From a virus: a stretch of DNA of 55,242 bases. The translations under genes were made by a program, and so were the position numbers. Location: the IMG/VR virus record IMGVR_UViG_3300047160_036265. One strand, written 5' to 3'. Under the pieces are notes generated by a model, which saw only the letters and a list, made by a program, of their open reading frames with translations, had not been told where the DNA came from and searched no databases. Shown one piece after another: positions 2,231-49,333 of this stretch (positions are counted from its first letter, which is position 1; each line of letters begins with the position of its first letter).

Positions 2231-2264
2231 CCACAAACAATAACGGGGCCGACGTGAAGAGAAG

Positions 2265-21110: not shown

Positions 21111-22127
21111 TCAGTTCACGTTGAGTTTGTCGCAAAAACGCTCGGCCACGTCAAATACCACGTCAAACTCTTTGAGTCCGTCCACGAGGTTGCGGGGAAA
21201 TATCGAGCTTCCGTGCAGAGCGCCCAGAAGACCCGCCAGCATCGACCCGTTACTGTCCGTGTCGCCGCCCGCCGATACCACGTCGTACAGCGACTCGATG
21301 CTAAGCGGGTTTCGCACGAAGAACATATAGGTGAAGGGCAGGGAGTCGTAGATGTAGCAACTGCCCTTCAAGTCGGTGACGATCTTGCCGGCGTCGTATT
21401 CCTCGTACTGGTAGAGCAACTTCATGCGGGCGTGCAGGTCGTCGTCGCCCTCATCGGCGCTTTTCTTGAATCGCTTGTCCTTGCCCATCAGGGCGGCACC
21501 GACCACGCAGTTGATAAAGGAGTCCACCCGAAAGTCGGCGGGGTCGCTGGTCAGGCATTTGAAAATTGCGAATGCCTGGCACAACCCACTTTGGACTGCC
21601 ATGCGGGCGTTATGGGTCATGCGGGTGTAGTTTTCAATGTCCTGCACGCTCTGACCCCAGGCCGGCTCCTCGCACTGCGGGTTGGTGATCGCCATGTATG
21701 CGCCTAGGGGCGCAATCTTCATGGGGATACCGTTGCCGGTGCCACGTTTGGGTTCCTTGGTCTTGCCGGAAGTGGTCCAGGGTACGCCTTGGGCCAGGCG
21801 AGCCACGGCCTCCTTGGTGGTCTTGCCCCAGCCCCGGACGCTCTTCTTATATTCCTCGACGTGCCAGGCAGCGATGGCATTCAGGTCCAGGCAGCCTGTC
21901 TGAATGATACCCTCGGCGGTAGCCTTGGTCAACTGCCAGTCATCGGTGGTGGTGCCCCGATGGTCGTCATCGAAATACTTGTGGCTGGAGCAGTCGAGGT
22001 AGTCGGTGATGCGCCCGTAGCGCTTCTGAATGCCCTCCAGGGTGTTGCTCTCGGTGGGCTTGCCCAGAGCATCGCCAATAGCAATGCCCAGGAACATGCC
22101 AGTAATACGGTCACGAGTAATCGTCAT
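21111..22127 (-). CDS. ADP-ribosylglycohydrolase (ARH/DraG family)
   Basis: N-terminal RDRITGMFLGIAIGDALGKPTE and C-terminal GGDTDSNGSMLAGLLGALHG, the ARH family Mg-binding signatures. Confidence 0.8.
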   Translation of the reverse strand: MTITRDRITGMFLGIAIGDALGKPTESNTLEGIQKRYGRITDYLDCSSHKYFDDDHRGTTTDDWQLTKATAEGIIQTGCLDLNAIAAWHVEEYKKSVRGWGKTTKEAVARLAQGVPWTTSGKTKEPKRGTGNGIPMKIAPLGAYMAITNPQCEEPAWGQSVQDIENYTRMTHNARMAVQSGLCQAFAIFKCLTSDPADFRVDSFINCVVGAALMGKDKRFKKSADEGDDDLHARMKLLYQYEEYDAGKIVTDLKGSCYIYDSLPFTYMFFVRNPLSIESLYDVVSAGGDTDSNGSMLAGLLGALHGSSIFPRNLVDGLKEFDVVFDVAERFCDKLNVN

Positions 22128-22657: not shown

Positions 22658-24073
22658 CTAACCAGTTTTCTCCGGCAACGGAAGGGTGACAATAAATTCG
22701 CTGCCCTCCCCCAACTTGCTGGTGACGGTAATGGTGCCGCTATGGGCCTCCACAATAGAGCGGACCAAGCTCAGACCGATACCCATACCGCTACCATTTT
22801 GGGTATCAACGATTTTGTGAGCCTGCACGAACAAGTCAAAAATATGGGGCAGGATGTCTTCGGGGATGCCGGGGCCGTTGTCTGTGACCTTGATCTCAAT
22901 GATGGCCTTGATGACCTGGACGGTAAGGCTTATAAGACTGCCGCTAGGTGCAAATTTAAGGGCGTTGCCGATCAAGTTAAAAAACACCTGCTGCCAGCGG
23001 GTGGGGTCGGCATAGATGAGCAAGGGTTCTGCCGGGATGCGCACCTTGAGAATTTGATTTTTCTTTTCGGCGGTAATATAAAGCGTTTCCAGCGCGTTGC
23101 GAACGGCGTGTTGCAGGATCATATCCTGCTTGTGAATCGGCAAGCGGCCCGTGGTGATCCGGGATACGTCGAGCAGGTCATCTACCAGGCGGGTGAGATG
23201 GACGGCTTGCCGCTCAATAATATCCAGGTGCCTCTGAGTGTCGATACCTTTTCGCAGAACCGGCAGCGAAGTGAAAATCGGCGCAAGCGGGTTCCGCAGT
23301 TCGTGGCTCAGCATGGCGATGTACTCGTCCTTGCGATTGTCCTCTGTGCGCAGTTTTTCTTCGGCCTGCTTGCGCTTGGTGATCTCCTCGGAGAACATGA
23401 TGATGCCGCCGATCTCGTCCACCGAACAGTACCAGGGACGCTTTTCCCAGCGCAGCCAGTGGACCATGCCGTTGGGGCGCTCAATATAGTCCTCGTCGCT
23501 GGAGACAGTTTCACCGCCCAGCGCCTTATAAATCGCCGTCTTCCAGCGTTCGGGGATTTCCGGGAATACGTCAAAGTGCCGTCTGCCGATAAGCGAGCGG
23601 CCAGCCTCGCGCTCGGCTGGAAAGAAGTCAACGAGCCAGCGGCGACTAACCGCCACATAGCGCAACTCAGTATCCAAGATGGCGATGGCGGACGGCGAGT
23701 GTTCGATGAGGAGGTTCAGAGTAGTGCGCAGGCGGTTGTAGTCAGTGATGTCATTGTTGACTTCGACAACTTGTACGGACTCGCCCTTGGTGTAAAGGGC
23801 CTGATGGCTGGCAACGGTGAGCCGGCGTCCGTCCTTGCGGGTGTGGATAAGTTCCCCGCTCCACCTGCCGTCGCGCAGAATAGTGGCGGCAATATCCTCG
23901 GCGGGAAGGGCGTGGAAGATCGTTTTGAGGAGTGAATGACTGATCTGGCCAACCGCCTCCTCCTTGGTGAAGCCGTACAGCAGGGCCGCTCCGGCGGACC
24001 AAAACTGGATACGACCGTCGATGTCTCGAATTAACACGTTAGCCACATCGAGAACATCACTCACCGATTTCAT
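22658..24073 (-). CDS. PAS-domain sensor histidine kinase (471 aa)
   Basis: Two PAS-like segments, the HisKA H-box SHELRNPL, and HATPase N/G boxes (NLIGNALKF, DNGPGI, GSGMGIGL). Confidence 0.8.
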   Translation of the reverse strand: MKSVSDVLDVANVLIRDIDGRIQFWSAGAALLYGFTKEEAVGQISHSLLKTIFHALPAEDIAATILRDGRWSGELIHTRKDGRRLTVASHQALYTKGESVQVVEVNNDITDYNRLRTTLNLLIEHSPSAIAILDTELRYVAVSRRWLVDFFPAEREAGRSLIGRRHFDVFPEIPERWKTAIYKALGGETVSSDEDYIERPNGMVHWLRWEKRPWYCSVDEIGGIIMFSEEITKRKQAEEKLRTEDNRKDEYIAMLSHELRNPLAPIFTSLPVLRKGIDTQRHLDIIERQAVHLTRLVDDLLDVSRITTGRLPIHKQDMILQHAVRNALETLYITAEKKNQILKVRIPAEPLLIYADPTRWQQVFFNLIGNALKFAPSGSLISLTVQVIKAIIEIKVTDNGPGIPEDILPHIFDLFVQAHKIVDTQNGSGMGIGLSLVRSIVEAHSGTITVTSKLGEGSEFIVTLPLPEKTG

Positions 24074-24134: not shown

Positions 24135-24704
24135 TCAGATCGCGCCAAGACACTTGTACATGAACAGCACGGGCCAGGTCTTGGCGGAAAACTTGTTGCG
24201 GCTCTCGCACAGGGAACAAACCCCGGCGTAATCCAGCAGGTGGACTTCGATTTCCTCCGTAGCCTCGTTGCCGTCATGGTTGACGGTGCCTTCGCACTCG
24301 CAGAATACCAATACTACAGACTCGTCGGAAAGTCCAGCAGAAGATATGAGAGATGGACTGATTTTGATAATTCCGGTGAGGGTCAGGCCCGTTTCTTCCT
24401 TCAGTTCGCGCTTGGCATCCTGCACAGCATCGGCCTCGCACAGCCCGGCAGGGAAAGCGTACTCATAGTCGTTGAGGGGAATGCGAAACTCACGGAGGAC
24501 CACAAGGCGGCGTTGGCCCTGCTCGTTGACGTGGATGGGTACGATGATAACGGCATCGGGCTTGAGTTGCCCAGAGCCGTTGGCGGGTTCTTTTTTGCGC
24601 GAGGCGAAAATCCAGTCGCCTTCTTTATTGCGGTTCTTCCAGTGGACGGAGAACAAATTGAGCCAGCGGAAGTCGGTGAGCTTCTTAGGGGGAGTCACGT
24701 CCAT
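24135..24704 (-). CDS. Nudix hydrolase (ADP-ribose pyrophosphatase-like; 189 aa)
   Basis: Nudix box ...GLCEADAVQDAKRELKEETGL (REx2EExGL). AGGAGG Shine-Dalgarno. Confidence 0.75.
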   Translation of the reverse strand: MDVTPPKKLTDFRWLNLFSVHWKNRNKEGDWIFASRKKEPANGSGQLKPDAVIIVPIHVNEQGQRRLVVLREFRIPLNDYEYAFPAGLCEADAVQDAKRELKEETGLTLTGIIKISPSLISSAGLSDESVVLVFCECEGTVNHDGNEATEEIEVHLLDYAGVCSLCESRNKFSAKTWPVLFMYKCLGAI

Positions 24705-24964: not shown

Positions 24965-26050
24965 TCAGCCGTCCACATCCATGTCGGCAAATAGCCGGTT
25001 GGGGTACTTGACCTTGTACCCCTCCAGCAGACGGGCCTTGATCCCCTCGGTTACGTCCTTCTTGTCGAAGGCCGTCATGAGCGACCCGAAAATCTGGGGA
25101 TATTCGGCCTTGGCAAGCCAGGCATAATCCTTGCGCAGTTTTTCGGGGCCTGGATCGCCTACGGACGCTACCTCCATTATAGCAGCAGCCACCTTTAACA
25201 CACGGCTGGTTTCGTGCAGAAGGTCAAGCTGCGCCTCGGTATAGATTTCCTTCAGTTTCGCCTGGTGACGATCTGGTGCCTTGGCGATCAGGTCGTCCAT
25301 CAACCCGTCAAAGACGACTTCATAAAGCCGGTAGGCCGGACGCATGAGCGCATCAACAGCCTTGTGTCGCTCCAGATACCAGTTGCACTTCGCCTTGACC
25401 CACAGGCCATTTTCCAGAACGACGACGTAGCCTTCAAATTCCTCCCGCTCCAGGTGATCGAAGAGATCAGCGAACGCGAAGTCATAGCGGATCGCGCTGT
25501 CGGGGTAGGTTGGGCAGTGGTCGTAGTCTCCGGTGGCACGGCAACGGGAATGCAGGTACACCAGACGAGAGCGTGGGTATTCTACGACAATTTGGTTGTG
25601 GGGGGCCACAAACTCAAAGATCGGAGTATAACCTCGCCGTACCTCCTTAACAATGTCGTCCACCATACCCAATTTCCGTGCCAAACGCAACGCCTCCTGG
25701 GCCTGTGGCGTGTCGCAAGACATCCTGGTGGACGCACGCAGGTCGCCCTTCCATTCAAAGAAATGGATCATCGACCCGTCCAGCTTCTCGTACACCTTTC
25801 CATTCAGGTGGCAGAGCTTGTGGTACTGCGTCTCGTCCGTCTGGCCGACGTTGAAAAACTTGTGCAGGGGCAGGGAGACAATTTGCTCGGTGGCCTCGTC
25901 AAAGGTGATGCCCCGGAATTCCCGCCGAATGCCGTCGAACGACCCAGGAATCTGGATGAGGTAGTTTACGCAAACCAGGCCGTCGTACCGCTTTACGAGG
26001 AATTCCTCACGGCCTTCGAGGGCGACCAGGGCTTCGGAGAGGGTGAACAT
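24965..26050 (-). CDS. T4 RnlA-like RNA ligase 1 (about 361 aa)
   Basis: FRGITFDE...PLHKFFN, VYEKLDGSM (KxDG motif I) and TPIFEFVAPHNQIVVEY, collinear with T4 Rnl1. Starts at MFTLSE immediately downstream of P5. The -10 lies 6 nt from the ATG, so the mRNA looks leaderless. Confidence 0.8.
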   Translation of the reverse strand: MFTLSEALVALEGREEFLVKRYDGLVCVNYLIQIPGSFDGIRREFRGITFDEATEQIVSLPLHKFFNVGQTDETQYHKLCHLNGKVYEKLDGSMIHFFEWKGDLRASTRMSCDTPQAQEALRLARKLGMVDDIVKEVRRGYTPIFEFVAPHNQIVVEYPRSRLVYLHSRCRATGDYDHCPTYPDSAIRYDFAFADLFDHLEREEFEGYVVVLENGLWVKAKCNWYLERHKAVDALMRPAYRLYEVVFDGLMDDLIAKAPDRHQAKLKEIYTEAQLDLLHETSRVLKVAAAIMEVASVGDPGPEKLRKDYAWLAKAEYPQIFGSLMTAFDKKDVTEGIKARLLEGYKVKYPNRLFADMDVDG

Positions 26051-26056
26051 TTTGGT

Positions 26057-26086
26057 ATTGTACAGCCGGAACGAGGCGGTTGTAAA
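26057..26086 (-). promoter_or_regulatory. promoter P5 (leaderless rnlA-like transcript)
   Basis: TTTACAACC + 18 nt + TACAAT. The predicted start site coincides with the A of the ATG. Confidence 0.6.
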
Positions 26087-26283
26087 ACTGTGCGGTGCCG
26101 GATTCCCGATTCTCCACCGGCATCTCCGGGTGCCGGGACCGTGCATCCCGGCCCATTGTGGCTTTGCTCCCCGGCGTGTTAATTTGTGGATCGTGTCTAG
26201 CAGCCGAGTGGTCAAGTCGGCCTCTTTTTACACCAACCGCACAATTTTTGTTTTACAACCCATATATAGGAGAGGAGGGATTC

Positions 26284-26376
26284 ATGCACCCGCAAAGGAT
26301 TTGCAACCACAACATTATCGCATCGGAGGCGGTAAATATCAAGGCCATGTCACAGTTTGGCAGCCTGTTCTTCTAA
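26284..26376 (+). CDS. possible small ORF (30 aa) on the plus strand
   Basis: Near-perfect Shine-Dalgarno AGGAGAGGAGGG 5 nt before the ATG. Preceded by a plus-oriented TTTACAAC. Convergently overlaps the 3' end of the gene at 26350-27237 by 27 nt. Confidence 0.25.
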   Translation: MHPQRICNHNIIASEAVNIKAMSQFGSLFF

Positions 26377-27237
26377 TGCGGCTCTCACTCGTGTGGCGTC
26401 GGCCTTTCCTCCTAGCTCTCTTAAAACCGGGCCGATGAGCGAGTTGAGAGCCTGCTTTTTACCCTTCTTGTAGTCTTCAACCACCTTGGGTGATGCCGCC
26501 AGGTACTTCGCCACGGTGGTCGCAACTACGTCCTCCTGGGCAACACTAAGGATGTCCAACGCAAAGATTGCTGTCAAGGCATCAACGCCGTCCCAGCAAT
26601 AAGGAAACACATCCTTTACCTGCTTGGCGGACAGCACCCCCTTCAGTCGCAGGAACAGCAAGCTAGTTATATCATCAGCCAGCCACGGCAGATAGTCCAG
26701 CACGTCGGCTAATGTGAATTTGGTCTGCTCCAGCTTGGCCTGCAACTCGTTAGTCAGGAAATTAAAAACGAGCTTGCACCAGTCGGTCCACTCGGAAGGT
26801 GGCGCAGGCGGCGGTTTGTACCGGGGCATGTAGCCTTCATTCGGTATTTCCACCCACTCAATATCAGGCCAGTTCCGCTTTTTCTTGAGGCGAAGCCACC
26901 TTTCCAAACTCCCCTGCCCCAACAACCGCCAGCTAAAGCGGCGACTTTGTGGGGGATGTTGAAGCGTTTGCCGCCCCTCAACCTTTTTGCGCTCCGGGGC
27001 TTGGAGATCGGGCACAGTGATAAACATATGCCAATCTGGCACGCTTGCCTCTGCTGGCTTTCCCTGCATCTCGTAATACGGGAACTTCATCAGCCAGTAG
27101 ACTGCCTGACCCAGCTTATCGGTGGACCGCTCCCAATATTCCCGCTCGGCCTCCAGCCAAAAAGAAACGCCGTCTCCCGGTGGGGAGCCGGCGTTTTGCC
27201 ATTTGAAGTAGGCCCGCAGCCTAATGTCGTCAAGCAT
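26350..27237 (-). CDS. DUF2934-like N-terminus fused to a GatB/YqeY-domain C-terminus (about 295 aa)
   Basis: N-terminal IRLRAYFKW...WLEAEREYW. C-terminal VAKYLAASPKVVEDYKKGKKQALNSLIGPVLRELGGKADATRVRAALEEQ resembles the GatB C-terminal/YqeY domain. ATG with GAGGAAGG Shine-Dalgarno. Confidence 0.55.
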   Translation of the reverse strand: MLDDIRLRAYFKWQNAGSPPGDGVSFWLEAEREYWERSTDKLGQAVYWLMKFPYYEMQGKPAEASVPDWHMFITVPDLQAPERKKVEGRQTLQHPPQSRRFSWRLLGQGSLERWLRLKKKRNWPDIEWVEIPNEGYMPRYKPPPAPPSEWTDWCKLVFNFLTNELQAKLEQTKFTLADVLDYLPWLADDITSLLFLRLKGVLSAKQVKDVFPYCWDGVDALTAIFALDILSVAQEDVVATTVAKYLAASPKVVEDYKKGKKQALNSLIGPVLRELGGKADATRVRAALEEQAAKL

Positions 27238-27430
27238 CGGCCTTCCTCGTAATTTCAAATTTCAGCGTGGTGAGATCATAGCCCCGTGCCTGAAGCTCTT
27301 GGCATTGCGCTTCGCTCAAGATGTCGGCCAGGAGCCGGCGATCTGGACCATTGGGGCCGTCGAATAGCAACTGCTTGCCCTTGTGGCGCTCGCCCCGCAG
27401 GTAGCCGTAATAGGCACGGAGCTTCTTCAC
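27230..27430 (-). CDS. hypothetical protein (66 aa)
   Basis: ATGA-coupled to the upstream gene. Confidence 0.45.
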   Translation of the reverse strand: MKKLRAYYGYLRGERHKGKQLLFDGPNGPDRRLLADILSEAQCQELQARGYDLTTLKFEITRKADA

Positions 27431-28679: not shown

Positions 28680-28723
28680 AAAACAAAAAGGGCTGCCGGG
28701 CGGCAGAACCACACCGGCAGCCC
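28680..28723 (-). terminator. intrinsic terminator
   Basis: 10-bp stem GGGCTGCCGG/CCGGCAGCCC with a 14-nt loop, followed by TTTTTGTTTT on the minus strand. Downstream of the Mpa/ARC gene. Confidence 0.65.
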
Positions 28724-28750: not shown

Positions 28751-30424
28751 TCAGGCCGCAGTCGGGCGCAGCTTCTCGACCTTCACGCCGCACTTCTCGA
28801 TGCCCTTGGCATCCATGAAGTCTTCGATGTCGAAATCAGCGTTCTTGGCGATGTTGTGCAGATAGGTCGTCTGCACCGCAGCCCGGAAGTCATCGACACG
28901 GACGAAGGTGCCTTTGCCGGACTTCGAGGCCATGTCGCGCTTCATGGCGGCGGACGTGGCGATGTCAATGATGCCGGCGATCATGGCCCCGGTGAGGCAA
29001 TCGCCCAGCGTCAAGTAATGTTCCTTGCCGCCGCCGTCCACGAGCTTGTACAGCACGCGCTCCTGGGAGAAAATCTCGGCGGTAGTGTGGGCAGCGATCT
29101 CGGCCAAATCCGCCGGGCCGGTCGGAATGCCCCGCAGGTGAATGCGGAAATATTCAATGGCCGTGCGGGTCGTGGGCCGACCGATGCGCACCATGCGGTC
29201 GATCCGGCCTTCCCGAACCACGGCGGGGTCGATGCGCTGTTGCTGGTTGGTGGCGAGCATCACCATGACCTTGGAGGTTTCCAGGCCGTCCATTTCCGAC
29301 AGGAACATCGGAACGATGGTGTTCTCCACGTCGCTCGACTTGCCGGTGCCCCGTTTCGGCAGGATGGCATCGGCCTCGTCCACAAAGAGGAGGGCGGGGT
29401 ATCCGTGTTTGCCGTGGTGTTCACGGCCACGCTCGAACAACTCCCGGATCATCTGCTCCGACTGGCCGACCCACTTGCTCAGCAACTCCGGCCCCTTGAC
29501 GTAGATGAAGCCGGACTGCATCTGCGGCTTCTCGTGAATCTTGGCGATGCTGTTCGCCGCCGCCTTGGCGCAGAGGGTTTTGCCGCAGCCCGGAGGGCCA
29601 TACAACAGGACGCCCTTGGGCGGCTTCTTGTTGTAGTGCTTGTAGAGTTCCGGGAACTGGTAGGGCCGTTCGATAGCCTCCACCAACTGCTCCTTGGCCT
29701 CGCGCAACCCGGCGATTTCATCCCAGGTCGTCTGGGACTCCTCGACCAGATTGAAGCGGTCCTGGCCGTCGCGCTCCAACAGGCGGACCACCACGGTATC
29801 GGAGGGGTCCAGCACCACCCGGTCGCCCGGCTTGAGCGTTGTGTTGGGCAGGCCGTGCAAGACCTGGCGGGGCCGACCATCCACGTCCACTTCGGCGTGG
29901 TCCTTGTCGATGAGGCGGGCAACGGCGCAGATCGTACCACCGCCGCTCGTCTCGGACTTCTCGTGGATTTGATAGGTCTGCAAATCGACCTTCACCACGT
30001 CGGACGGGAAGAACTTCTTGCCCGGAACGCCGTGAACTTCGTAGCGCTGGCCGTTGAAGACGATCACGCAGTTGGTGCCGTCGTCCTTGCCCAGCAGTTT
30101 GACCTGAACCGGCGCGTCCTTCAGGCCGATGGAAAACTTCTGGATGGCTCCGTTCGGCAGGCCCAGGGTGACGTTGCCCTCCTTATCGACGCCCTTGGAA
30201 GCGATCTTGCCGTAGCGTGGGCGTTTCTCTTGCTTGCGCCACTCCCTGTCAATAATGAGCATCAAGTCGCCTTGCTCAAAGGCGTCCAACTTGAACTCGT
30301 TATTGGCGCTGACCACGGTGGCATAGACCAGCGGGGCAGACAGGAGGCGGGCGACGAAGCACTCGTACTCCAGAATGGTGCCTTTGGCCTCTTCCAGCAA
30401 CGCCATCAATTCTTCTTCGTTCAT
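28751..30424 (-). CDS. Mpa/ARC-type proteasome-associated AAA+ ATPase homologue (557 aa)
   Basis: PKGVLLYGPPGCGKTLCAKAAANSIAK, VKGPELLSKWVGQSE, RGTGKSSDVENTIVP and IDPAVVREGRID are near-identical to mycobacterial Mpa blocks. Coiled-coil plus OB-like N-terminus. The C-terminus ends ...LRPTAA and lacks the GQYL docking motif. Confidence 0.8.
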   Translation of the reverse strand: MNEEELMALLEEAKGTILEYECFVARLLSAPLVYATVVSANNEFKLDAFEQGDLMLIIDREWRKQEKRPRYGKIASKGVDKEGNVTLGLPNGAIQKFSIGLKDAPVQVKLLGKDDGTNCVIVFNGQRYEVHGVPGKKFFPSDVVKVDLQTYQIHEKSETSGGGTICAVARLIDKDHAEVDVDGRPRQVLHGLPNTTLKPGDRVVLDPSDTVVVRLLERDGQDRFNLVEESQTTWDEIAGLREAKEQLVEAIERPYQFPELYKHYNKKPPKGVLLYGPPGCGKTLCAKAAANSIAKIHEKPQMQSGFIYVKGPELLSKWVGQSEQMIRELFERGREHHGKHGYPALLFVDEADAILPKRGTGKSSDVENTIVPMFLSEMDGLETSKVMVMLATNQQQRIDPAVVREGRIDRMVRIGRPTTRTAIEYFRIHLRGIPTGPADLAEIAAHTTAEIFSQERVLYKLVDGGGKEHYLTLGDCLTGAMIAGIIDIATSAAMKRDMASKSGKGTFVRVDDFRAAVQTTYLHNIAKNADFDIEDFMDAKGIEKCGVKVEKLRPTAA

Positions 30425-30483
30425 GGAAAGTCCTCGCGTCCGTTCAGGGGTTAGGGGATGCCTCTCGTCCTGCTCGTTCCGGT

Positions 30484-31212
30484 TCAGTCAGCCTGGACCA
30501 GCACTTCGCCAGCCGAGTCAGCGAAAGTATAGCCGCTGCTGGGCGAGGCGATGGTGCCAAGCGGTGTCTTGGTGATACGGACGTTGTTGTTCTCGTCCAC
30601 CGTGTATTTGGCGAGGGGCTTGCCGCCCCCGCTGGTGGGCTTCTGGACCGCCAGGGTCTTGCCGTCCTTGGTCCAGACGAACACGGTGTCCTTGGGCTTG
30701 AAGCCACAGGCCCGCAGATGCTTGGCCGGGATGCAGACCGTGCCACGGGCGTCGGGCTTGCGGCAGCCATTCGGCTTGCCCGTCCCGACCGCCAGTTGCG
30801 GCAGGCTGGAGGGCGGGGCCAGGCTGGCGCTGCTGGTGCCGTCGTCATCGTCCACGTTGGGGTCGGCCTTCCCCTGGGCGTAGAAGCTCCCCACGGCCTT
30901 GCCAACCGCCGCCGGGTTCGACACGGCGGGTCTGGGCTGCGAGGGGTTGTAACTCGTCGGATCGTCGGTGTAGCGGTGGTACAAGAAGGCCGGAACCGGC
31001 GCACCCTGAATCGGGATCAAGGTGCGGGTATAATCCGACCCCATGAGGCCACGACCATAGTAGTCATGGACCACCTGCTTCATGTTGTTGTGCCGCTCCC
31101 GGTGGCCCCGGTTGCGGACTTCCTTGGTCACGTCGTAGGCCGTGAACATCTCCCCGGCCTGAACCTTGTCGTTGACCACTGCTTCGATTACAGTCTGAAG
31201 GGCTGCGTCCAT
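30484..31212 (-). CDS. hypothetical protein with two AbrB/SpoVT-like swapped-hairpin segments (242 aa)
   Basis: RGTVCIPAKHLRACGFKPKDTVFVWTKDGKTLAV and a second, similar repeat. ATG with AAAGGAA Shine-Dalgarno, downstream of P7. Confidence 0.45.
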   Translation of the reverse strand: MDAALQTVIEAVVNDKVQAGEMFTAYDVTKEVRNRGHRERHNNMKQVVHDYYGRGLMGSDYTRTLIPIQGAPVPAFLYHRYTDDPTSYNPSQPRPAVSNPAAVGKAVGSFYAQGKADPNVDDDDGTSSASLAPPSSLPQLAVGTGKPNGCRKPDARGTVCIPAKHLRACGFKPKDTVFVWTKDGKTLAVQKPTSGGGKPLAKYTVDENNNVRITKTPLGTIASPSSGYTFADSAGEVLVQAD

Positions 31213-31241
31213 CGTTGTTCCTTTCCAGTCGTTGATGTTTC

Positions 31242-31270
31242 ACTGTACCGCCGCTGACCCCGGTTGTAAA
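31242..31270 (-). promoter_or_regulatory. promoter P7
   Basis: TTTACAACC + 17 nt + TACAGT. Confidence 0.55.
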
Positions 31271-35709: not shown

Positions 35710-35922
35710 CTAGTTGACATTCCCCGATTCTACGTCGGGATTCTTCGGTTGTAAAGCATCATTGACGTGCGGCTCACACCAACAGCCGTGGATGCGGATG
35801 CCTCCGCAGTTACAACAATATTGGTTGAGGAAGCCCCGGATGAATTCGAGTCGGTCTTCGGGGCGGAAGTGCTTCTGCCGTTCCAGAAACTCATCGTAAA
35901 GCTGCTTGGCTGACTCCAGCAT
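35710..35922 (-). CDS. Cys-rich small protein (70 aa)
   Basis: CCNCGGIRIHGCWCEPH motif. ATG with GGAGGGG Shine-Dalgarno. Confidence 0.5.
   Translation of the reverse strand: MLESAKQLYDEFLERQKHFRPEDRLEFIRGFLNQYCCNCGGIRIHGCWCEPHVNDALQPKNPDVESGNVN
35727..35755 (-). promoter_or_regulatory. promoter P9 (inside the 3' end of the upstream gene)
   Basis: TTTACAACC + 17 nt + TAGAAT. Confidence 0.55.
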
Positions 35923-36562
35923 GATCCCCTCCGATCTGGTTCGGGACTATGGCCTGTTCCATCCAGTGAACGGAAGTCTGGACGTGGTTGGGGCGAACAT
36001 ATTTGGCGACGTGACGGGCGAAATCTCCATAAGCGAAGCCCTGGCAGGTCCGCACCACATAACCCTCGCAGGTATCGCCAAAGCAAGACCGGCGGGGCCA
36101 GAGCGATTTGATGGCCTTTTCGTCCCAGATGCCTCGGTACAGTACAGGAACGGTAGGAATGTCAAAAAGTCCAGCCCACTCCACCGTCTCATCCCAGGCC
36201 AGGCAGCCGTTGCTGCCATCATATACGCCGATCAGGTAAAAATACGCTGTGAGCCGGTCGTAGAAAATGCTGTGCTTGGCGTAGACGTTTTCGCCGCAAA
36301 GCCGCCAGCCCTCCGGGATGTTGTGTCGGATCGAGGCGTGGAACTGCTTGAGGAGATTGCGAGACGGGTGGTTCTTGGAGTTGAGGGACCGGGCGTGGTA
36401 GTGGATGCAATACATGGACGTGCATTCACCGTCCATTTTTTCCGTCACCACAACCTCTTGGCCTGCAAAATGATCCACGTCGGCCAGAACCTTGTCGTCC
36501 CGGTCGGATTTCTCGCTCCAGGGCAGGTGCGGTGTTCGGGGATATTTGTACAGGCCGTTCAT
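35891..36562 (-). CDS. RNA ligase family protein (PF09414-like; 223 aa)
   Basis: N-terminal YKYPRTPHL, motif I EKMDGE (KxDG), motif III GENVYAKH, motif IV EGYVVR, motif V KYVRP. Confidence 0.7.
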   Translation of the reverse strand: MNGLYKYPRTPHLPWSEKSDRDDKVLADVDHFAGQEVVVTEKMDGECTSMYCIHYHARSLNSKNHPSRNLLKQFHASIRHNIPEGWRLCGENVYAKHSIFYDRLTAYFYLIGVYDGSNGCLAWDETVEWAGLFDIPTVPVLYRGIWDEKAIKSLWPRRSCFGDTCEGYVVRTCQGFAYGDFARHVAKYVRPNHVQTSVHWMEQAIVPNQIGGDHAGVSQAALR

Positions 36563-39017: not shown

Positions 39018-39511
39018 CCTTGGAACCTCCGCAGGTCCGCAGGAACATCCTCGTAATTGACAACCACACCCTTTTCCTTCTGGATGGCACGAATGGTTTC
39101 GTGGGTATATTGCTGCCGCTTACCCATGCCGCTGAGATCGACGCCGGCTGCGAGGAAGCGCCCGACCGCATATTGTTCCACCGCCTTCTGCCACCGCCAA
39201 TAATAGCGAATGGCTTGGTGGACGCTGGCGTAGCGGCAGCGGTCGTAGAAGTCGTCCTCACGGTGGCTGGGCATGGACTCGTGTTCCCACTCTCCCAGCT
39301 TGTTAAGACAGCCGAAGGTGCCCTTGATGGCCCAAAGCTCCGGCTTGTCCTTATCGCGCCGGCCCATGTTGCGAACATGGACGCCGTGCATTTTCTGGTC
39401 GTCGGAAAAGAACTCCCACCAGAACGGAACGCCGCCCAGCAGAGGCTCAGGGCCGAGATAAAACTCGCTGGCCAACTCCAGCAGGATGCTATCAGAAACT
39501 TTGTCCGCCAT
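39014..39511 (-). CDS. hypothetical protein (165 aa)
   Basis: Protein-like ORF that overlaps the upstream gene. Confidence 0.5.
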   Translation of the reverse strand: MADKVSDSILLELASEFYLGPEPLLGGVPFWWEFFSDDQKMHGVHVRNMGRRDKDKPELWAIKGTFGCLNKLGEWEHESMPSHREDDFYDRCRYASVHQAIRYYWRWQKAVEQYAVGRFLAAGVDLSGMGKRQQYTHETIRAIQKEKGVVVNYEDVPADLRRFQG

Positions 39512-40142
39512 TCTGGTTCTCCAGGGCCAGAATCAGCCGGTCCACGCCAATGGCCCAGCCAATCCCGCAGTCATAGCGCCCGCCGCCCGCCACCTGCTTT
39601 TGGGCACCCAAGCTAGGCACTTCTACCTCGAAGCCGTCTTCAACATAATAGGACAAGCCACGCTTGACGCTCGCGTTGAGGACGTAATTCTCCAGCCCGA
39701 TTGTACGGAGAAACAGGTCCAGAAGTTTAGTCATTTCCTCCTTACTGGCGGTTCCGCCCAGGTTCTCCACCCCGAATTGCCAGAATTCCCGGTAACGACC
39801 GGCCTGGGGACGGTCATAACGGTAACACCGGCTGAGGTAGAAGACCTTGACGGGTTTGGGCAGGACTTTGCTCCAGTCGTTCTTAAATTCCGCCTGGACG
39901 ATGGCGGTGACTTCCGGGATGAGGCAGATTTCCCTGCCGCCCAGGTCGTCAAAGACGTACATCTGGCCCAGGATTTCAGGCCCGGCCTTGTCGGTGAAGA
40001 CTTCCGAAGAGGCCAACAGCGAGGGGAAGAACTCCTGATAGCCTTCAGCAATGGCGGTGTAGCGCAGGGTGTCGGTCGCGTCCCGAAACGCCTTGGCCTT
40101 GGCCCCGAACAGGTGGCGGGTGCCTCTAATCGAGTTTGACAT
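39492..40142 (-). CDS. HisRS-like class II aminoacyl-tRNA synthetase catalytic-core protein (216 aa; no anticodon-binding domain)
   Basis: GTRHLFG...MYVFDDLGGREICLIPEVTA (motif 1 region), CYRYDRPQAGRYREFWQFG (motif 2), GGGRYD (motif 3). Confidence 0.7.
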   Translation of the reverse strand: MSNSIRGTRHLFGAKAKAFRDATDTLRYTAIAEGYQEFFPSLLASSEVFTDKAGPEILGQMYVFDDLGGREICLIPEVTAIVQAEFKNDWSKVLPKPVKVFYLSRCYRYDRPQAGRYREFWQFGVENLGGTASKEEMTKLLDLFLRTIGLENYVLNASVKRGLSYYVEDGFEVEVPSLGAQKQVAGGGRYDCGIGWAIGVDRLILALENQNGGQSF

Positions 40143-41091
40143 CTCCGCTCATCAACCCTTCTCGAATGCGTTCCAGCCCCCGCTCCCGCAGTTGCCGGAC
40201 TCGTTCCTTGGTCAAGCCCAAGTCCTTGCTAATCTCCTTCAAGGTACGCTTTGTGCCGCCATTCTTCAAGCCAAACCACTGTTCGATGACGTATCGCTTG
40301 CGGTCGTCTTCATCGCCCAAGGTCTTCATCAGGCGGGCCACGTTCTTCTTGACAAGCTCCTTCCCCTCCTCATAGTCCCGCAGGTCTTCGTCGCTGGTGT
40401 CCAGGCGGGTGTCATAAATCCCGTCATCAAAACCAGTCACAAACCGCTCATTAAAGGTTCGCTCACCGGCCAGATCACGGGTGAAGTTGTTAAGCAGAAC
40501 CCAGGTGGCGTAGGTGGAGAATTTGAAACCACGGGTCCAATCGAAGCAGTCCACGGCCTTAACGATGTTCATATAAGCATCGGCAAGCAAGTCGTGCATG
40601 AGGCTGTGGGAGCGGTAAAAGTCCGTCCGCTTCCGCAACACCTGAGCGGCGAGGCGGGTGTTGGAACACACGAGTTGGTGCTTCACAACCTCGGCTTGTT
40701 TCAGACATAACTCAACCCGCTCAATAGATTTCAGCGCCCGCTCGTGTTGCTCCGGGGTCGGGGCCTTGGAGCGCCGCAAGGTCCGGGTCAGACGACGGGC
40801 TTTGTACTTGAGGAAGTTATATTTGCGAAACAAATGCCGCTCCTGGTCTTTATCCAGCAGCGGCTCCTGGTATAATGGCATCAGTTCGCTAGGAATATTC
40901 TGGTGCTTGAGCTTGGCGACTTCCTGGCGCTTCTCGTTGAATTCATCCATCCGGGGCATCTCAGCCAGGATTTCCGCCTGCATAGAGCGGAGATCGAAGT
41001 CCGGCGACTTGAATATCTTGAACTTCGGGCTGCTCACATAACTCACCAATTCTTTCGCGCGCTGCGCAATGTCATCCTTTACTGCCAACAT
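40126..41091 (-). CDS. sigma-70 family sigma factor (321 aa)
   Basis: Region 2 DLLADAYMNIVKAVDCFDWTRGFKFSTYATWVL. Region 4 TLKEISKDLGLTKERVRQLRERGLERIR. AAAGGAGG Shine-Dalgarno. Own P10 promoter. Confidence 0.85.
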   Translation of the reverse strand: MLAVKDDIAQRAKELVSYVSSPKFKIFKSPDFDLRSMQAEILAEMPRMDEFNEKRQEVAKLKHQNIPSELMPLYQEPLLDKDQERHLFRKYNFLKYKARRLTRTLRRSKAPTPEQHERALKSIERVELCLKQAEVVKHQLVCSNTRLAAQVLRKRTDFYRSHSLMHDLLADAYMNIVKAVDCFDWTRGFKFSTYATWVLLNNFTRDLAGERTFNERFVTGFDDGIYDTRLDTSDEDLRDYEEGKELVKKNVARLMKTLGDEDDRKRYVIEQWFGLKNGGTKRTLKEISKDLGLTKERVRQLRERGLERIREGLMSGDVKLD

Positions 41092-41168: not shown

Positions 41169-41576
41169 TTACGGAACGGGCACCAAGAAAGAGTTGAGCG
41201 CCCGGACGATATTCCGCACCTTATATCCCTTGGGGTGGTCCACGACCACCGTTATTTCCTGATCGGCCACGGCCCAGGGCTTGCCGGCGGCGTTGCTTTC
41301 GATGATGACGTAGACCATAGAGTTGTGGGTATAGCGGCGGCTATAACCCAGGCGGTCCCACAGTTCCTTGGCCTGCGGGGATTGGAAAATAAAAAACTCG
41401 TTGCGATCCAGCCTGGAGCGACCCCGCAAGCTAGGTGCGCCGTTAGGCGGGTCGTCATACTCCACCACCATTTCCGGCCAGTGGGCTTTGCACAGACCGA
41501 GAATGCCCTTCTCGATCTGTGCATATTTCTTGCCTTCCGGCCAGGTGTAGAGCAGATCGTAACCGCCGATTTCCAT
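41169..41576 (-). CDS. hypothetical protein (135 aa)
   Basis: ATG overlaps the upstream stop. Confidence 0.5.
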   Translation of the reverse strand: MEIGGYDLLYTWPEGKKYAQIEKGILGLCKAHWPEMVVEYDDPPNGAPSLRGRSRLDRNEFFIFQSPQAKELWDRLGYSRRYTHNSMVYVIIESNAAGKPWAVADQEITVVVDHPKGYKVRNIVRALNSFLVPVP

Positions 41577-43138
41577 TATTTACCGCAGGTTGGGTCGTAT
41601 TTGTGCATCATCTGATTGATGGTAGCCAGGTCCAGCGGTTTGACCAGGAAATCATGGAATCCGGCGTCCTGGGCACGCTGGCGGTCCTTCTCCTGGCCGA
41701 AGCCGGTGACGGCGATGACTTTTGTTTCCGGCACGAGGCGGATCAACTCCTGGCAGACCTTGTAGCCGTCCATGTAGGGCAGGCCAATGTCCAGCAGCAC
41801 GATATTGGGTACGAACTCGGTCGCGCTCTTCAGGGCCGCTGGGCCATCGTTGGCCACCCACACGTCGTAGCCCTGCATCCGCAGCATGGCCACCATGCTG
41901 TCCGCCGCATCCACATTGTCATCCACGACGAGGATGCGGCAGTCCTTGGTAGGGGCGATGGGGAATGACGCAGGTTCCCCGGTATCCTCCTTGCGTGGTG
42001 AACCGCCCTCGATGGATTCCGGTACGGGAACCTCGTCGCCCACATCGCTTACGGGGAATTCGATGCTGAAGGTGGACCCCAGGTTGAGGCCCGGCGAATG
42101 AGCGGCAACGGTTCCTCCCTGAAGCTCCGTCAACTGCTTGACGAGGCTCAGACCTACTCCCAGACCGCCGTGGGTCTGGTATTCGCCCCGGCGCTCGGCC
42201 TGCACGAACAGGTCGAAAATACGGGGCAGCATGGTTTCGGAGATGCCGATGCCGGTATCCACGACTTCGATTTTTACCTTCTTCTGGTCATCCGAGAGGA
42301 GGCAGTTGAGACGGATTTTTCCACCCGGTTCCGTATATTTGGCAGCGTTGTTGAGCAAATTGGAAATCGCCTGCTCGACACGGGGCGCATCGCCCACCAT
42401 CCAGATCGCCTCGGACGGGATGGAAATGTATAAGGAGTGATAGCGGGTGTCGATGGCGGGCCGTGACTGGTCGATGGCGTTGGAAATGGCCCGCTGAAGC
42501 TGGACTGGCTCCTGCTTGATATTGATTTTGCCCCGGCTGATGCGGGCCATGTCCAGCAAGTCATCCAGCAACCGGCCCATATGCTTGACCTGGCGCTCGA
42601 TGATATTACGGTGGTCGCGCAGTACGGCGTCCTGGTTGCCGTCGCGCATCCGGGACACCTGGAGCGACGACAGGATTGGGGCCAGCGGGTTGCGCAGTTC
42701 GTGGGACAGAACGGCCAGGAACTCATCCTTGCGGCGGTCGGCCTCGGCCAGTTCGTCAATCCACTTCTTGCGTTCGCTGATGTCCCGAATAACGGCGACA
42801 ATCCCCTCCTGGTCGCCGTGGTTGAACTTGGACAGGGACATCTCGACGGCGAATTCCTCACCGTTACGACGCCGGCCCACCGTCTCGACCAGTGAGCCGA
42901 TCATGGGGCCTTCCCCGGTGGCCTTATAGTGGACGATACCCCGTGCCATCTCCTCCTGCATACGCAGCGGCACGAAGTCCGCACAGGCAACAACCTTGTT
43001 GACCATCTCCTCCTGCCGATAGCCGAACATCCGTTCCGCCGCCGGGTTGAAATGGGTGATGAGCAAGTCCTGGTTGGCGATGATGATGGCATCCTGGGCG
43101 CTGTCGAGGATGGCTTGCAACATGGCTATATCCTCCAT
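41576..43138 (-). CDS. hybrid sensor histidine kinase (PAS-HisKA-HATPase-REC; about 520 aa)
   Basis: H-box SHELRNPL, N/G boxes LLNNAAKY, DTGIGI, GGLGVGL. C-terminal receiver ILVVDDN...LLDIGLPYMDG...KPLD. TGATG coupling. Confidence 0.8.
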   Translation of the reverse strand: MEDIAMLQAILDSAQDAIIIANQDLLITHFNPAAERMFGYRQEEMVNKVVACADFVPLRMQEEMARGIVHYKATGEGPMIGSLVETVGRRRNGEEFAVEMSLSKFNHGDQEGIVAVIRDISERKKWIDELAEADRRKDEFLAVLSHELRNPLAPILSSLQVSRMRDGNQDAVLRDHRNIIERQVKHMGRLLDDLLDMARISRGKINIKQEPVQLQRAISNAIDQSRPAIDTRYHSLYISIPSEAIWMVGDAPRVEQAISNLLNNAAKYTEPGGKIRLNCLLSDDQKKVKIEVVDTGIGISETMLPRIFDLFVQAERRGEYQTHGGLGVGLSLVKQLTELQGGTVAAHSPGLNLGSTFSIEFPVSDVGDEVPVPESIEGGSPRKEDTGEPASFPIAPTKDCRILVVDDNVDAADSMVAMLRMQGYDVWVANDGPAALKSATEFVPNIVLLDIGLPYMDGYKVCQELIRLVPETKVIAVTGFGQEKDRQRAQDAGFHDFLVKPLDLATINQMMHKYDPTCGK

Positions 43139-43539
43139 CACCCCTGGTCAGGGGGCAGTTCCGTAAAGAAGTCCTCGGATTGCTCGACAACCTCTTGCCC
43201 CCCTTGTCGTGCAGCGAGTTTGTGACCCAGACGGAGCAGACCTAGCGCGATATGCGGAGGAAGGTTATGAACCTCCATTTGCAGGTCAATGCCCATAAGC
43301 TCGAACCTGGGCAGCAAGAGAACGAATTGCGGTTGCGGCCTCTTGCGCAACTCGGCCAGCAGTTGATCGGTTGTAGCCAACTCCAGGTCGAGTTGCAAGG
43401 GGTCTTTTCCCACAAGGACGTTCAGACGTTGCTGCAAGTCATGTGCCCGAACTTTGTAGCGGTACAAACGAAAAACCAGATAACCCCCCATCGCCGTGAG
43501 CAGCAGCGCCGTGAGGCTGGCAACTACGAGGTTGAACAT
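43138..43539 (-). CDS. membrane-anchored protein (about 133 aa)
   Basis: Internal ATG (MFNLVVAS...) with AAGGAGAGGG Shine-Dalgarno. N-terminal TM helix. Immediately upstream of the hybrid kinase. Confidence 0.5.
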   Translation of the reverse strand: MFNLVVASLTALLLTAMGGYLVFRLYRYKVRAHDLQQRLNVLVGKDPLQLDLELATTDQLLAELRKRPQPQFVLLLPRFELMGIDLQMEVHNLPPHIALGLLRLGHKLAARQGGQEVVEQSEDFFTELPPDQG

Positions 43540-48037: not shown

Positions 48038-49333
48038 TTATGCGGCCTTGACCGGCAGCAGTTTGACTTCGCCCCGCACAACTTCGGGGGTCACGACCCA
48101 CTTGCCGCCCTTGTGGTCAGGCAGTTCGTACATGATGTCGAGCATGATCTCCTCAACCACGCCCCGCAAAGCACGCGCACCCGTATCCCGTTCGATGGCG
48201 AGCTTGGCGATTTCCTTGACAGCACCGGGCGTAAACTCCAGGTCGGCCCCGTCCATGCGGAAAATCTTCATGTATTGCTTGAGCAGGGCGTCCTTGGGGT
48301 CGGTCAGAATCTTGCAGAGGAATTCCTCGTTCAGTTCGCAAAGCGTGGTGATGACCGGGAGCCGCCCGACGAATTCGGGGATCATGCCGAACTCGATCAG
48401 GTCGTCGCTTGTCACCTTGCCCATGATGGCATCGTTCTGTTCCTGCTCTGTGCCCTCCTCGTGTTTGACGCCGAAGCCGATGCTCCGCTTGCCGGTGCGG
48501 CGGGCGATGATGTCCTTGAGGCCGGTGAACGTGCCGCCGCAGATGAACAGAATGTTGGTGGTGTCCACCTGGATATATTGTTGCTCCGGGTGCTTGCGCC
48601 CGCCCTGTGGGGGGACGTTCGCCAACGTGCCTTCCAACATCTTCAGAAGGGCCTGCTGGACCCCTTCGCCCGACACGTCACGGGTGATGGAAATGTTCTG
48701 GTTGGTTTTGCCGATCTTGTCAACCTCATCGAGATAAATGATGCCGCACTGAGCGGCCTCGATGTTAAAATCTGCCGACCGAAGCAGCCGCAGCAGCAGG
48801 TTCTCAACGTCTTCGCCAACGTAGCCCGCCTCTGTCAACGTGGTAGCGTCCCCGATGGCGAATGGCACGTCCAGCTTCTTGGCCAGGGTCCGTGCCAGGA
48901 GGGTCTTGCCAGAACCAGTAGGGCCGATCAACAAGATGTTGCTCTTGTCGATGTTGACCTCGGCCAAGGGGTCCGCCTCACCATCCTTTCTGGTAAGCGT
49001 GTGGTCCTTCAACCGCTTGTAGTGGTTGGCGACGGCCACGGCCAGAATCTTCTTGGCCCGGTCCTGGCCGATAACGTACTGGTCCATGTGCGCGACCAGT
49101 TCCTTCGGAGAAGGGATGCGCTGCGGAAGGTACTGGTCGGACAATTCGCGCTTGAGATTTTGCTTCCTGACAATCTCCTCGCAGATGCCGACGCAGCCGG
49201 CGCAGATGAACACCTTATCCTCGTCGGGTGTTCGTCCGTTGGCCAGCGCCCCTGGACCTTCGATCAGCGGTCCCACTACCTTGTGGGACTGCTTGCAAAA
49301 GTCACAATGCTGATCCCTCTTCTTCCTCGTCAT
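48038..49333 (-). CDS. clpX: ClpX ATP-dependent protease ATPase subunit
   Basis: N-terminal C4 zinc finger (CDFC...CAGC), Walker A GPTGSGKT, and ClpX-typical blocks. ATG (MTRKKRDQH...) with AAGAGG Shine-Dalgarno. Confidence 0.85.

Follow-up and report, generated by a model that had tools for sequence, protein, structure and literature searches.

A phage-encoded ARC/Mpa-type AAA+ ATPase that lacks the proteasome-docking tail and any observed linkage to Pup genes

ARC/Mpa ATPases act as gatekeepers of the bacterial Pup-proteasome system and are found in Actinobacteria, Nitrospirae and a few other phyla. The flexible tail of these proteins ends in a GQYL motif that inserts into the pockets of the 20S proteasome α-ring. 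A proteasome is not always required since in corynebacteria that lack one, ARC acts as an unfoldase on its own. Literature searches on a phage proteasome-associated ATPase or Mpa, pupylation, unfoldases and DUF1360 returned nothing relevant. The only existing labels found were unreviewed "proteasome-associated ATPase" names, carried by JGI records and by the genomes of two Brevundimonas phages.

The DNA considered here, referred to as the window, is a stretch of 55,242 nucleotides (55 kb) that represents the readable part of the genome of one huge phage (IMG/VR record IMGVR_UViG_3300047160_036265). For relatives of the ATPase, the readable DNA consisted of flanks of 6–15 kb. The ATPase gene begins with an ATG that has a GAGGA ribosome-binding site 8 nt to its 5' side, and its features are as follows:

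28751..30424, minus strand: ATPase ORF, an AAA+ protein of 557 aa
30338..30418, minus strand: N-terminal helix in the AF2 model (residues 3–29), predicted to form a short coiled coil
29777..30334, minus strand: β-rich interdomain (residues 31–216), predicted as OB1 with an insertion followed by OB2
28925..29749, minus strand: AAA+ module of the classic clade (residues 226–500; Pfam AAA, E 2.9e-34)
28751..28924, minus strand: C-terminal region (residues 501–557 and the stop codon), homologous by alignment to the C-terminal segment of Mpa/ARC

Two other genes associated with proteolysis are encoded in the window, one for a ClpX-like protein (48038..49369) and one for an M50 peptidase (49414..50481).

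A reading made earlier from the sequence alone (the sequence-only reading) had proposed that the protein is a genuine unfoldase of the ARC family. This assignment holds, as the best profile, the best sequence match and the best fold match all point to Mpa. The top NCBIfam family was TIGR03689 (pup_AAA; E 2.5e-90, 303.6 bits), aligned from residues 134–536 of the query to positions 79–494 of a 512-position profile, while the profiles for CDC48, PAN and FtsH scored lower at 201, 181 and 137 bits, respectively. Since the score of 303.6 falls below the curated equivalog cutoff of 504.75, the protein is best described as ARC-like and not as an equivalog, and the match does not imply that it functions as Mpa does. 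A Foldseek search with the ATPase model (AF2, pLDDT 90.3) gave Mycobacterium tuberculosis Mpa throughout the top 30 PDB matches (E ~1e-36, 465–497 aligned columns, TM 0.70–0.81), with matched chains that include both OB domains; Rpt subunits followed. Mpa was also the best PDB sequence match over a single stretch (query residues 176–495). Cdc48 ranked highly in the same comparison, but only as the sum of two stretches, the better of which scored 162 bits against 207 for Mpa, and a Cdc48 identity was rejected. Pfam scans of the ATPase identified none of the domains specific to the FtsH, Cdc48 or PAN clades, such as an M41 protease or a second AAA ring. Among 185,579 species genomes, the nearest cellular relatives were true ARC/Mpa proteins with 34–40% identity. 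Thus, the ATPase is a phage ARC/Mpa-type AAA+ protein and not a member of the FtsH, Cdc48 or PAN families.

Used as single-sequence queries against the PDB, the N-terminal 230 and the C-terminal 118 residues each returned no match at E values up to 10, and the homology of these two ends to Mpa is drawn from the fold match, the alignment and the profile over the full length. A search with the N-domain also returned giant proteins (P0178, P0192 and others) that were set aside as repeat-driven noise, being many short stretches matched to eukaryotic FN3/Ig repeats, and that are uninformative about the insertion in OB1. PADLOC reported generic AAA matches for the ATPase (IetA, TRIP13), which were not accepted as a defence-system assignment, and no match for its neighbours.

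Structure prediction of the N-terminal part of the protein identified a short coiled coil and two OB domains. A heptad pattern can be read from the sequence of the N-terminal helix (L6, L10, A13, I17, Y20, V24 and L27), and the coiled coil closes at a conserved proline hinge (LLSAP31LVYATVV) in which P31 is nearly invariant. In the alignment, this helix is the counterpart of the C-terminal half of the Mpa/ARC coiled coil together with its PP-x-x-YG hinge. The interdomain that follows is composed of approximately 15 strands in the AF2 model and is predicted to fold as two OB domains in tandem, which would link the coiled coil to the AAA module. Residues 165–216 have a weak match to Pfam Prot_ATP_ID_OB_C (E 2.7e-4, 21.2 bits, cutoff 23). 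From a MAFFT alignment with five cellular ARCs, OB1 carries a lineage-specific insertion of ~65–70 residues.

The motor motifs align one by one with those of Mpa/ARC. Walker A (GPPGCGKT, K282) is identical, and both the substrate-translocating pore loop-1 (KGPELLSKWVG) and the block SSDVE..VP..L.E.DG are near-identical. The remaining hallmarks are Walker B (FVDEAD; D349 and E350), sensor-1 (T392 and N393) and the arginine fingers R404/R407. Across 74 homologues, K282, D349, E350, T392 and N393 are invariant and the two arginines nearly so.

The C-terminal region contains helices spanning residues 510–540 and a strand at 548–551 in the AF2 model, and the protein stops six residues past this last strand with the sequence ...VEKLRPTAA. 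In the alignment, the Mpa tail of ~20 residues with its terminal GQYL is absent; the sequence-only reading had already claimed that the GQYL motif is missing. No G[QHT][YF]L motif was found in any frame over the ~350 nt scanned downstream of the stop codon (to window position 28400). More than 100 homologues terminate at the equivalent position. A GQYL-like terminal motif was present in 0 of ~85 phage loci while G[QHT][YF]L ends most of 75 cellular ARC loci, and such an end is missing from every one of the 94 representatives of clusters with the N-domain. The phage family has a short extreme C-terminus that shows no conservation and carries neither an HbYX nor a GQYL motif. By these comparisons, loss of the tail is a trait of the phage ATPase family and not of one gene. 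The label "proteasome-associated ATPase" is misleading for these tail-less phage proteins.

The genes of the Pup-proteasome system were also searched for. None of the Pup_ligase or proteasome Pfam families was detected in the 46 window ORFs scanned (almost every ORF of 150 aa or more), and no ORF in the window has the Pup-like ending GG[QE]; pup, pafA and dop are therefore absent from the window, as previously noted. Of the 75 cellular ARC loci, 48 have a Pup ORF no more than 6 kb from the ATPase gene, whereas none of the phage loci does. Six ORFs from phage loci that end in GG[QE] were considered as Pup and dismissed, having no Pup motif. In the DNA examined, none of pup, dop, pafA and prcAB accompanies the phage ATPase gene.

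These results bear on the earlier suggestion that a viral ARC may sequester pupylated proteins or act as a decoy. According to this explanation, the viral ring would bind Pup through its coiled coil and sequester or process pupylated host proteins. The coiled coil does align with the C-terminal half of that of Mpa with similar residues (LMxxLxEAK/R...RL) and the proline hinge, and the nearest cellular relatives are ARCs of Pup systems. However, the helix is only ~27 residues in length compared to a coiled coil of ~50 residues in Mpa, and a pup gene is found neither in the window nor in any phage locus examined. The N-termini of the phage ARC-like proteins also diverge strongly, with many matches beginning only at residues 140–230. 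Furthermore, one relative is located in a phage isolated on Brevundimonas, a host group for which we know of no Pup system. Sequestration and decoy activity thus gain no support, and we regard them as highly improbable.

The phage ATPase is instead probably a stand-alone hexameric unfoldase of the ARC/Mpa type that is used in infection independently of both the proteasome and Pup. We infer this from two observations, the missing docking tail and the missing gene linkage. The ring would thread and unfold, or disassemble, its target proteins alone and feed no proteasome. Targets may be chosen by the divergent N-terminal coiled coil and the OB1 insertion, which together make up the most variable part of the protein across phage lineages.

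A tail-less ring might also deliver substrates to a peptidase through a different interface, the candidates being a phage or host ClpP, HslV or a 20S-like ring encoded elsewhere. The C-terminal domain of the ATPase is conserved, the window holds the ClpX-like protein and the M50 peptidase, and the 55 kb that can be read is part of a larger phage genome, all of which would be compatible with such a partner. However, no peptidase gene is recurrently linked in ~90 phage loci, where the only widespread neighbour of the ATPase is a DUF1360 membrane protein, and the short, variable C-terminus carries no HbYX or GQYL motif. Coupling to another peptidase is decidedly unlikely in our assessment.

Directly upstream of the ATPase is an ORF for a protein of 242 aa, a member of what is termed here the A2 family, with the following features:

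30484..31212, minus strand: gene for the 242-aa protein, directly upstream of the ATPase
30958-31212, minus strand: N-terminal winged helix (residues 1–85), Fur/PadR-like
residues ~95–150: disordered, acidic linker with a weak helix at residues 100–112
30487-30765, minus strand: C-terminal MraZ-like double SpoVT/AbrB domain (residues 150–242)

This protein had previously been described as double AbrB-like, which is correct for the C-terminal half; the N-terminal winged helix was overlooked. Two β-α-β-β half-barrels within the one chain superpose on MraZ, which shares this single-chain double SpoVT/AbrB arrangement. Compared to MraZ, the 242-aa protein adds the winged helix and the long acidic disordered linker, and the sequence identity is only 16%. 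Pfam PF04014 matched 16 of 44 A2-family members (best E 8.9e-7), and the window protein alone gave no match at E values up to 1. With a profile of the C-terminal domain, the top three PDB matches were AbrB N-domains (E 0.0075–0.019). The A2 family is composed of ~50 clusters and appears to be phage-specific. Since both of its domains match DNA-binding folds, regulation through DNA binding is the most likely role of the 242-aa protein.

The two genes had been viewed as a pair that is co-transcribed from a promoter, P7, and closed by a terminator. The elements in question are:

31242..31270, minus strand: σ70-like phage promoter motif TTTACAAC-N15-TACAGT, immediately preceding the 242-aa gene
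28683..28706, minus strand: hairpin CTGCCG-CCCG-GCAG that runs into a T-rich stretch and resembles a terminator, 45 nt past the ATPase stop codon (a consensus match only)

The window has 10 exact TTTACA-N17-TAnnnT sites, every one of them on the minus strand; 0.02 are expected by chance, and 100 shuffles gave none. A generic σ70 scan did not rise above chance; only this specific motif does. The site at 31242..31270 is the seventh when the minus strand is read 5' to 3', in agreement with its earlier designation. A common, non-random promoter for the two genes is thus upheld in the window, and the motif also precedes the homologous 242-aa gene in loci L001 and L008. In L002 and L005, however, the motif lies between the two genes, so they do not always form one unit. 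With respect to the terminator, at 28706..28693 on the minus strand a short GC hairpin with a T-run does follow the ATPase stop codon, and the ribosome-binding site and ATG (28664) of the next small gene come after it; however, terminator consensus sites in the region number 8 against 5.7 expected, which is not above chance.

A wider survey of gene neighbourhoods addresses the pairing itself. Relatives of the ATPase were located on 97 IMG/VR contigs, many of them 170–607 kb in length, and clustering at 50% identity gives 94 clusters with the N-domain of the form found in huge phages. In the window, L001–L005, L008, L009 and L011, the 242-aa gene stands immediately 5' of the ATPase gene; wherever both occur within the flanks examined they are adjacent in this way (9/9), at ATPase identities down to 37%. 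This arrangement would suit a dedicated adaptor or substrate of the ATPase, with the 242-aa protein serving either as a DNA tether for stripping host proteins or, through its linker, as the start site for threading. The disordered N-terminus of Pup is a threading start site of this kind, and AbrB-like barrels are fold relatives of the N-domain of VAT/Cdc48. Besides this strict adjacency, the window, L001 and L008 have one promoter common to both genes, the acidic linker with its weak helix is disordered, one A2-family member has a faint match to CDC48_N (E 0.084), and at least nine further pairs of ATPase and 242-aa family members come from contigs of identical length, so that each pair apparently shares a contig.

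The broader distribution argues against such a partnership. Three related huge phages (L166, L167 and GenBank LR756511.1) have the 242-aa gene without an adjoining ATPase, and a tblastn search with the ATPase N-domain found no relative in the GenBank phage collection that includes LR756511.1. Conversely, more than 70 phage loci contain the ATPase without the 242-aa gene, 39 of which have the DUF1360 membrane protein downstream, and the MraZ-like domain is found in no other phage ARC-like locus. The occurrence of the 242-aa gene follows that of PARP more closely than that of the ATPase. Taken with the promoter motif that separates the genes in L002 and L005 and with the standard DNA-binding folds of both domains, a dedicated adaptor or substrate is unlikely. 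The functional pairing is not conserved, and the 242-aa protein is not an obligate partner of the ATPase; in this phage, it would most likely be a DNA-binding regulator carried on the same transcript.

In eukaryotes, p97 extracts PARP1. By analogy, the phage ATPase may be the extraction arm of an ADP-ribosylation module in which a WGR-PARP writer and an ADP-ribosylglycohydrolase (ARH) eraser operate with a NUDIX protein, the ATPase clearing ADP-ribosylated or trapped proteins from nucleic acid. The gene block Rnl2, PARP, A2, AAA, Rnl1, NUDIX and ARH is indeed kept in the window, L001–L005, L009 and L011, and modules for NAD/ADP-ribose metabolism and RNA repair are typical of jumbo phages (PMC9503650). 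However, L166, L167 and L168 retain the PARP/ARH block without the ATPase, and most phage ARC-like genes have neither PARP nor ARH within 6 kb. The linkage may reflect shared ancestry of gene order in one phage clade, and a dedicated role in ADP-ribosylation is very unlikely.

A broader proposal is a free-standing phage ARC "segregase" with swappable partners, these being the 242-aa protein and WGR-PARP/ARH for work on nucleic acid, or DUF1360 for work at the membrane in many smaller phages. In the huge-phage clade, marked or DNA-bound host proteins would be pulled off nucleic acid. If true, this would constitute a tag-independent or ADP-ribose-dependent viral system for protein extraction with no described bacterial counterpart, although we assign it little probability.

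Returning to the stand-alone unfoldase, the ATPase may be made early from the host-type σ70-like promoter. Its gene appears to sit within a block devoted to takeover and counter-defence that includes a sigma factor, the WGR-PARP, the ADP-ribosylglycohydrolase, the NUDIX protein and two RNA ligases. Its likely role would be the remodelling or removal of host or phage proteins during takeover. Protein unfolding may thus count among the activities of phages in takeover or counter-defence, a subject on which the literature searches yielded no paper. The phage proteins represent a sizeable viral branch of ARC in which the whole motor is kept while the docking tail and every observed link to Pup are lost. 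Such naturally occurring ARC rings, independent of the proteasome and diverse in their N-terminal recognition domains, would be useful for asking what sets substrate choice and 20S coupling.

Among described ATPases, PAN and Rpt1-6 belong to the same classic AAA clade and share the coiled coil, OB and AAA plan with the phage protein, with Rpt being the next-best fold match, and the D2 pore loop of VAT/p97 resembles its K-W-V-G. The phage protein differs from both groups in having a single AAA ring and two OB domains, as opposed to one OB domain or an N-D1-D2 organization, and in having no HbYX motif. The closest likeness is to Mpa/ARC (TIGR03689; PDB: 5KZF, 5KWA, 7PX9), with which it shares a coiled coil with a proline hinge, two OB domains, a classic AAA module and an Mpa-type C-terminal domain. 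It departs from Mpa/ARC in the missing tail and GQYL motif, a coiled coil of about half the length, the OB1 insertion of ~65–70 residues, an identity of 34–40%, a score under the equivalog cutoff, and a gene unlinked to pup, dop, pafA or prcAB. The ARCs of Corynebacterium and Bifidobacterium, which have no 20S proteasome, likewise end without GQYL (L091, L122, L124, L127 and L160). Unlike the phage ATPases, they still adjoin pup (L091). These ARCs depend on pupylation and are proteasome-independent unfoldases that, for example, disassemble pupylated ferritin in C. glutamicum. Thus, the proteasome-free actinobacterial ARC provides a functional precedent for an ARC without its tail.

The 557-aa ATPase belongs to the ARC/Mpa family of ring unfoldases. 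Its top NCBIfam family is the proteasome ATPase family TIGR03689, with a score of 303.6 bits (query 134–536 on profile 79–494 of 512) that lies below the equivalog cutoff of 504.75 bits, versus 201, 181, and 137 bits for the CDC48, PAN, and FtsH clades; another AAA clade, the outcome that would have counted against the sequence-only reading, is thus not indicated. In PDB sequence searches, Mpa provided the best single stretch (207 bits, query 176–495), and CDC48/p97 entries top the ranking only through the summed scores of their two AAA domains. An AF2 model of the ATPase was calculated from 74 homologues (pLDDT = 90.3). The best 30 Foldseek matches to this model were all M. tuberculosis Mpa (E ~1e-36, 465–497 columns, TM up to 0.81), followed by eukaryotic Rpt subunits. 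The motor is intact: across the family, catalytic and pore residues show little or no variation, so the ATPase is predicted to be an active translocase under selection.

The C-terminal docking motif GQYL is missing, as read earlier from the sequence. The chain stops six residues past the last strand, whereas cellular ARCs run ~20 residues further to GQYL in a MAFFT alignment, and no GQYL-like motif is present in any frame of the ~350 nt 3' of the stop codon (to window position 28400). The best 120 database homologues share this end point, with variable last residues. As a control, an ARC-like ORF was taken from every fetched locus. Most of the 75 cellular loci, obtained from a GTDB scan, terminate in GQYL, GHYL, GTYL, or GTFL (Corynebacterium and Bifidobacterium are among those that do not); none of the ~85 phage loci does. 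Proteins that share the N-terminal 225 residues form a small family; its 94 representatives, from a search of 1.84 billion proteins, all lack a GQYL-like end. Absence of the docking tail is a family trait of the phage ATPases. Non-canonical docking onto a protease is an unlikely alternative; clustering of all ORFs of the phage loci revealed no recurrently linked peptidase.

Of the 75 cellular loci, 48 have a true Pup ORF (...FVQKGGQ/E) at most 6 kb from the ARC gene; no such ORF was found in any phage locus or anywhere in the window, in keeping with the earlier statement that pup is absent there. Action of the ATPase as a Pup decoy is an unlikely alternative.

The same clustering identified one widely recurrent neighbour, a small three-helix/three-TM membrane protein with a CPYCxSHW motif that matches Pfam DUF1360 (E down to 4e-9). 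This protein was not found in the window; elsewhere its gene lies ~100–900 nt downstream of the ATPase gene in 39 phage loci, and it may be a partner of the phage ARC-like ATPases:

L010, L012–L020, L023–L025, L027, L030, L032, L037–L039, L041–L043
L045, L046, L053, L055, L062, L064, L072–L078, L080, L085–L087

The ATPase is of phage origin. Its relatives occur on 97 IMG/VR viral contigs, many of 170–607 kb. Among GTDB species genomes, the full-length matches are confined to four MAG contigs (L086–L089, labelled Saccharibacteria, Gammaproteobacteria, Rikenellaceae, and Patescibacteria), one of which is 513 kb. All four lack GQYL, two carry the DUF1360 neighbour, and they probably represent phage DNA that was binned into MAGs; all other GTDB matches are true ARCs at 34–40% identity. 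The N-terminal regions of the phage ATPases differ, many matches beginning only at query residues 140–230, which would fit N-domains that set the target or partner. Some of the phage genes are interrupted by inteins (homologues P0088 and P0105, with Pfam Hom_end and LAGLIDADG_3 matches), and the long ORFs of L026, L059, and L066 (828–1032 aa) may also contain them.

Nearly all credible genes of the 55-kb window, which comes from a huge phage, are on the minus strand. The features around the ATPase, and the promoter sites of the whole window, are as follows:

31270..31242, minus strand: promoter motif TTTACAAC-N15-TACAGT, upstream of the 242-aa gene
30484..31212, minus strand: ORF of the 242-aa protein
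28751..30424, minus strand: ORF of the ATPase (557 aa), starting at an ATG preceded by GAGGA
45 nt 3' of the ATPase stop, minus strand: short GC hairpin with a T-run; a small gene begins beyond it with an RBS and ATG
5' ends 2230, 12290, 20740, 31270, 33290, 35755, 41151, 49403, 52260, and 53810, minus strand: TTTACA(AC)-N15/17-TAnnnT sites

The motif TTTACA-N17-TAnnnT represents a real promoter class: the window has 10 exact sites, on the minus (coding) strand only, versus 0.02 expected by chance. The sites are intergenic, lying for instance before the PARP, 242-aa, and sigma-factor genes, and the motif recurs in five related loci (L001, L002, L005, L008, L009). Site 31270, the seventh from the minus-strand 5' end, is the P7 of the sequence-only reading. 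No further site follows on this strand until 20740, so the two genes share a promoter in the window, and it is of the host sigma-70 type.

Pfam searches also identified an AlgH-like gene, a PRPP synthetase gene, and the following accessory genes, the first six forming a conserved huge-phage block:

31600..33237, minus strand: WGR+PARP polymerase
21111..22127, minus strand: ADP-ribosylglycohydrolase (ARH)
24135..24704, minus strand: NUDIX
24965..26215, minus strand: T4-type RNA ligase 1
35891..36562, minus strand: RNA ligase 2-like protein
26350..27258, minus strand: DUF2934+GatB/YqeY protein
22658..24073 and 41576..43141, minus strand: PAS sensor histidine kinases, one of hybrid type (receiver domain)
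40126..41091: phage sigma-70 factor
39492..40142: truncated HisRS-like ORF (216 aa)
48038..49369, minus strand: ClpX-like AAA+ (zinc finger, AAA_2, ClpB_D2-small)
49414..50481, minus strand: M50 site-2-type membrane metallopeptidase, adjoining the ClpX-like gene

The block order is kept in L001, L002, L005, and L166 and partly in the GenBank huge phage LR756511.1 (595 kb), which has PARP (808 bits), ClpX (579 bits), and ARH genes in common with the window. Gene order around the ATPase homologues is likewise the same on a 122-kb soil contig (84% identity) and a 673-kb contig (57%). Jumbo phages are known to carry blocks of NAD/ADP-ribose and RNA-repair genes (PMC9503650), and a viral WGR-PARP adjoining RNA-repair enzymes deserves separate attention. 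With such neighbours, an ADP-ribose-linked extraction role is another, unlikely alternative for the ATPase. The ClpX-like and M50 genes are a second proteolysis-related pair encoded by the phage. ARAGORN identified a tRNA with anticodon CTA (2264..2337, minus strand; amber-suppressor type, labelled tRNA-Pyl); despite this tRNA, genome-wide TAG recoding is not evident since TAG ends 19 of the 85 predicted window ORFs.

The 242-aa protein has ~50 relatives, in which the N- and C-terminal domains are conserved and the acidic linker between them varies; the C-terminal domain bears D154-x-R156 and D206...R212. Its AF2 model (pLDDT = 81.8; both domains >90, linker <50) comprises a winged-helix domain of three helices and a pair of beta-alpha-beta-beta units. 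PF04014 (SpoVT/AbrB/MazE) is matched by 16 of 44 family members and the AbrB N-domain is the top PDB match of the C-terminal-domain profile; therefore, the earlier description as double AbrB-like was right. As both domains are classic DNA-binding folds, the model points to a DNA-binding regulator.

Alternatively, this protein could be a dedicated adaptor of the ATPase. Its gene lies directly upstream of the ATPase gene in the window, L001–L005, L008, L009, and L011, even where ATPase identity falls to 37%, and in the window, L001, and L008 both genes follow the promoter motif. However, the motif falls between the two genes in L002 and L005, and the PARP...ARH block holds the 242-aa gene without the ATPase in L166 (586-kb contig), L167 (208 kb), and LR756511.1; a tblastn search with the ATPase N-domain gave no match in the GenBank phage set to which this last genome belongs. 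Moreover, the 242-aa gene is missing from >70 phage ARC-like loci, its MraZ-like domain occurs in no other locus, and it tracks the PARP gene more faithfully than the ATPase. A functional link is thus rather unlikely, and it was concluded that the two genes lie side by side chiefly because gene order is conserved in one huge-phage clade. Of the pairing proposed earlier, the common promoter in the window stands; the pairing itself is not conserved in these other genomes.

A literature search turned up no publication on ARC/Mpa homologues of phages; automated "proteasome-associated ATPase" labels are present in JGI data and two Brevundimonas phage records. The molecular identity of the phage ATPase is clear. 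In the preferred mechanism, a hexameric ring would thread and unfold proteins without delivering them to a proteasome, the short coiled coil and the OB1 insertion would select the targets, and expression would come early, amid genes for takeover and counter-defence.

The MAFFT alignment with five cellular ARCs, together with the family rank and the Mpa matches, bears out an ARC-family unfoldase. Helix 3–29 lines up with the ARC coiled coil (C-terminal half) and its Pro hinge, OB2 is alignable throughout, Walker A (GPPGCGKT) is identical, and the Arg-finger segment is conserved. The pore loop KGPELLSKWVG corresponds to KGPELLNKFVG in cellular ARC, SSDVENTIVPMFLSEMDG corresponds to SSDVETTVVPQLLSEIDG, and the C-terminal segment aligns with a 27-residue ARC segment. 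Unlike Mpa/ARC, the ATPase bears a lineage-specific insertion of ~65–70 residues in OB1. A precedent for a proteasome-independent ring is the ARC of corynebacteria that have no proteasome.
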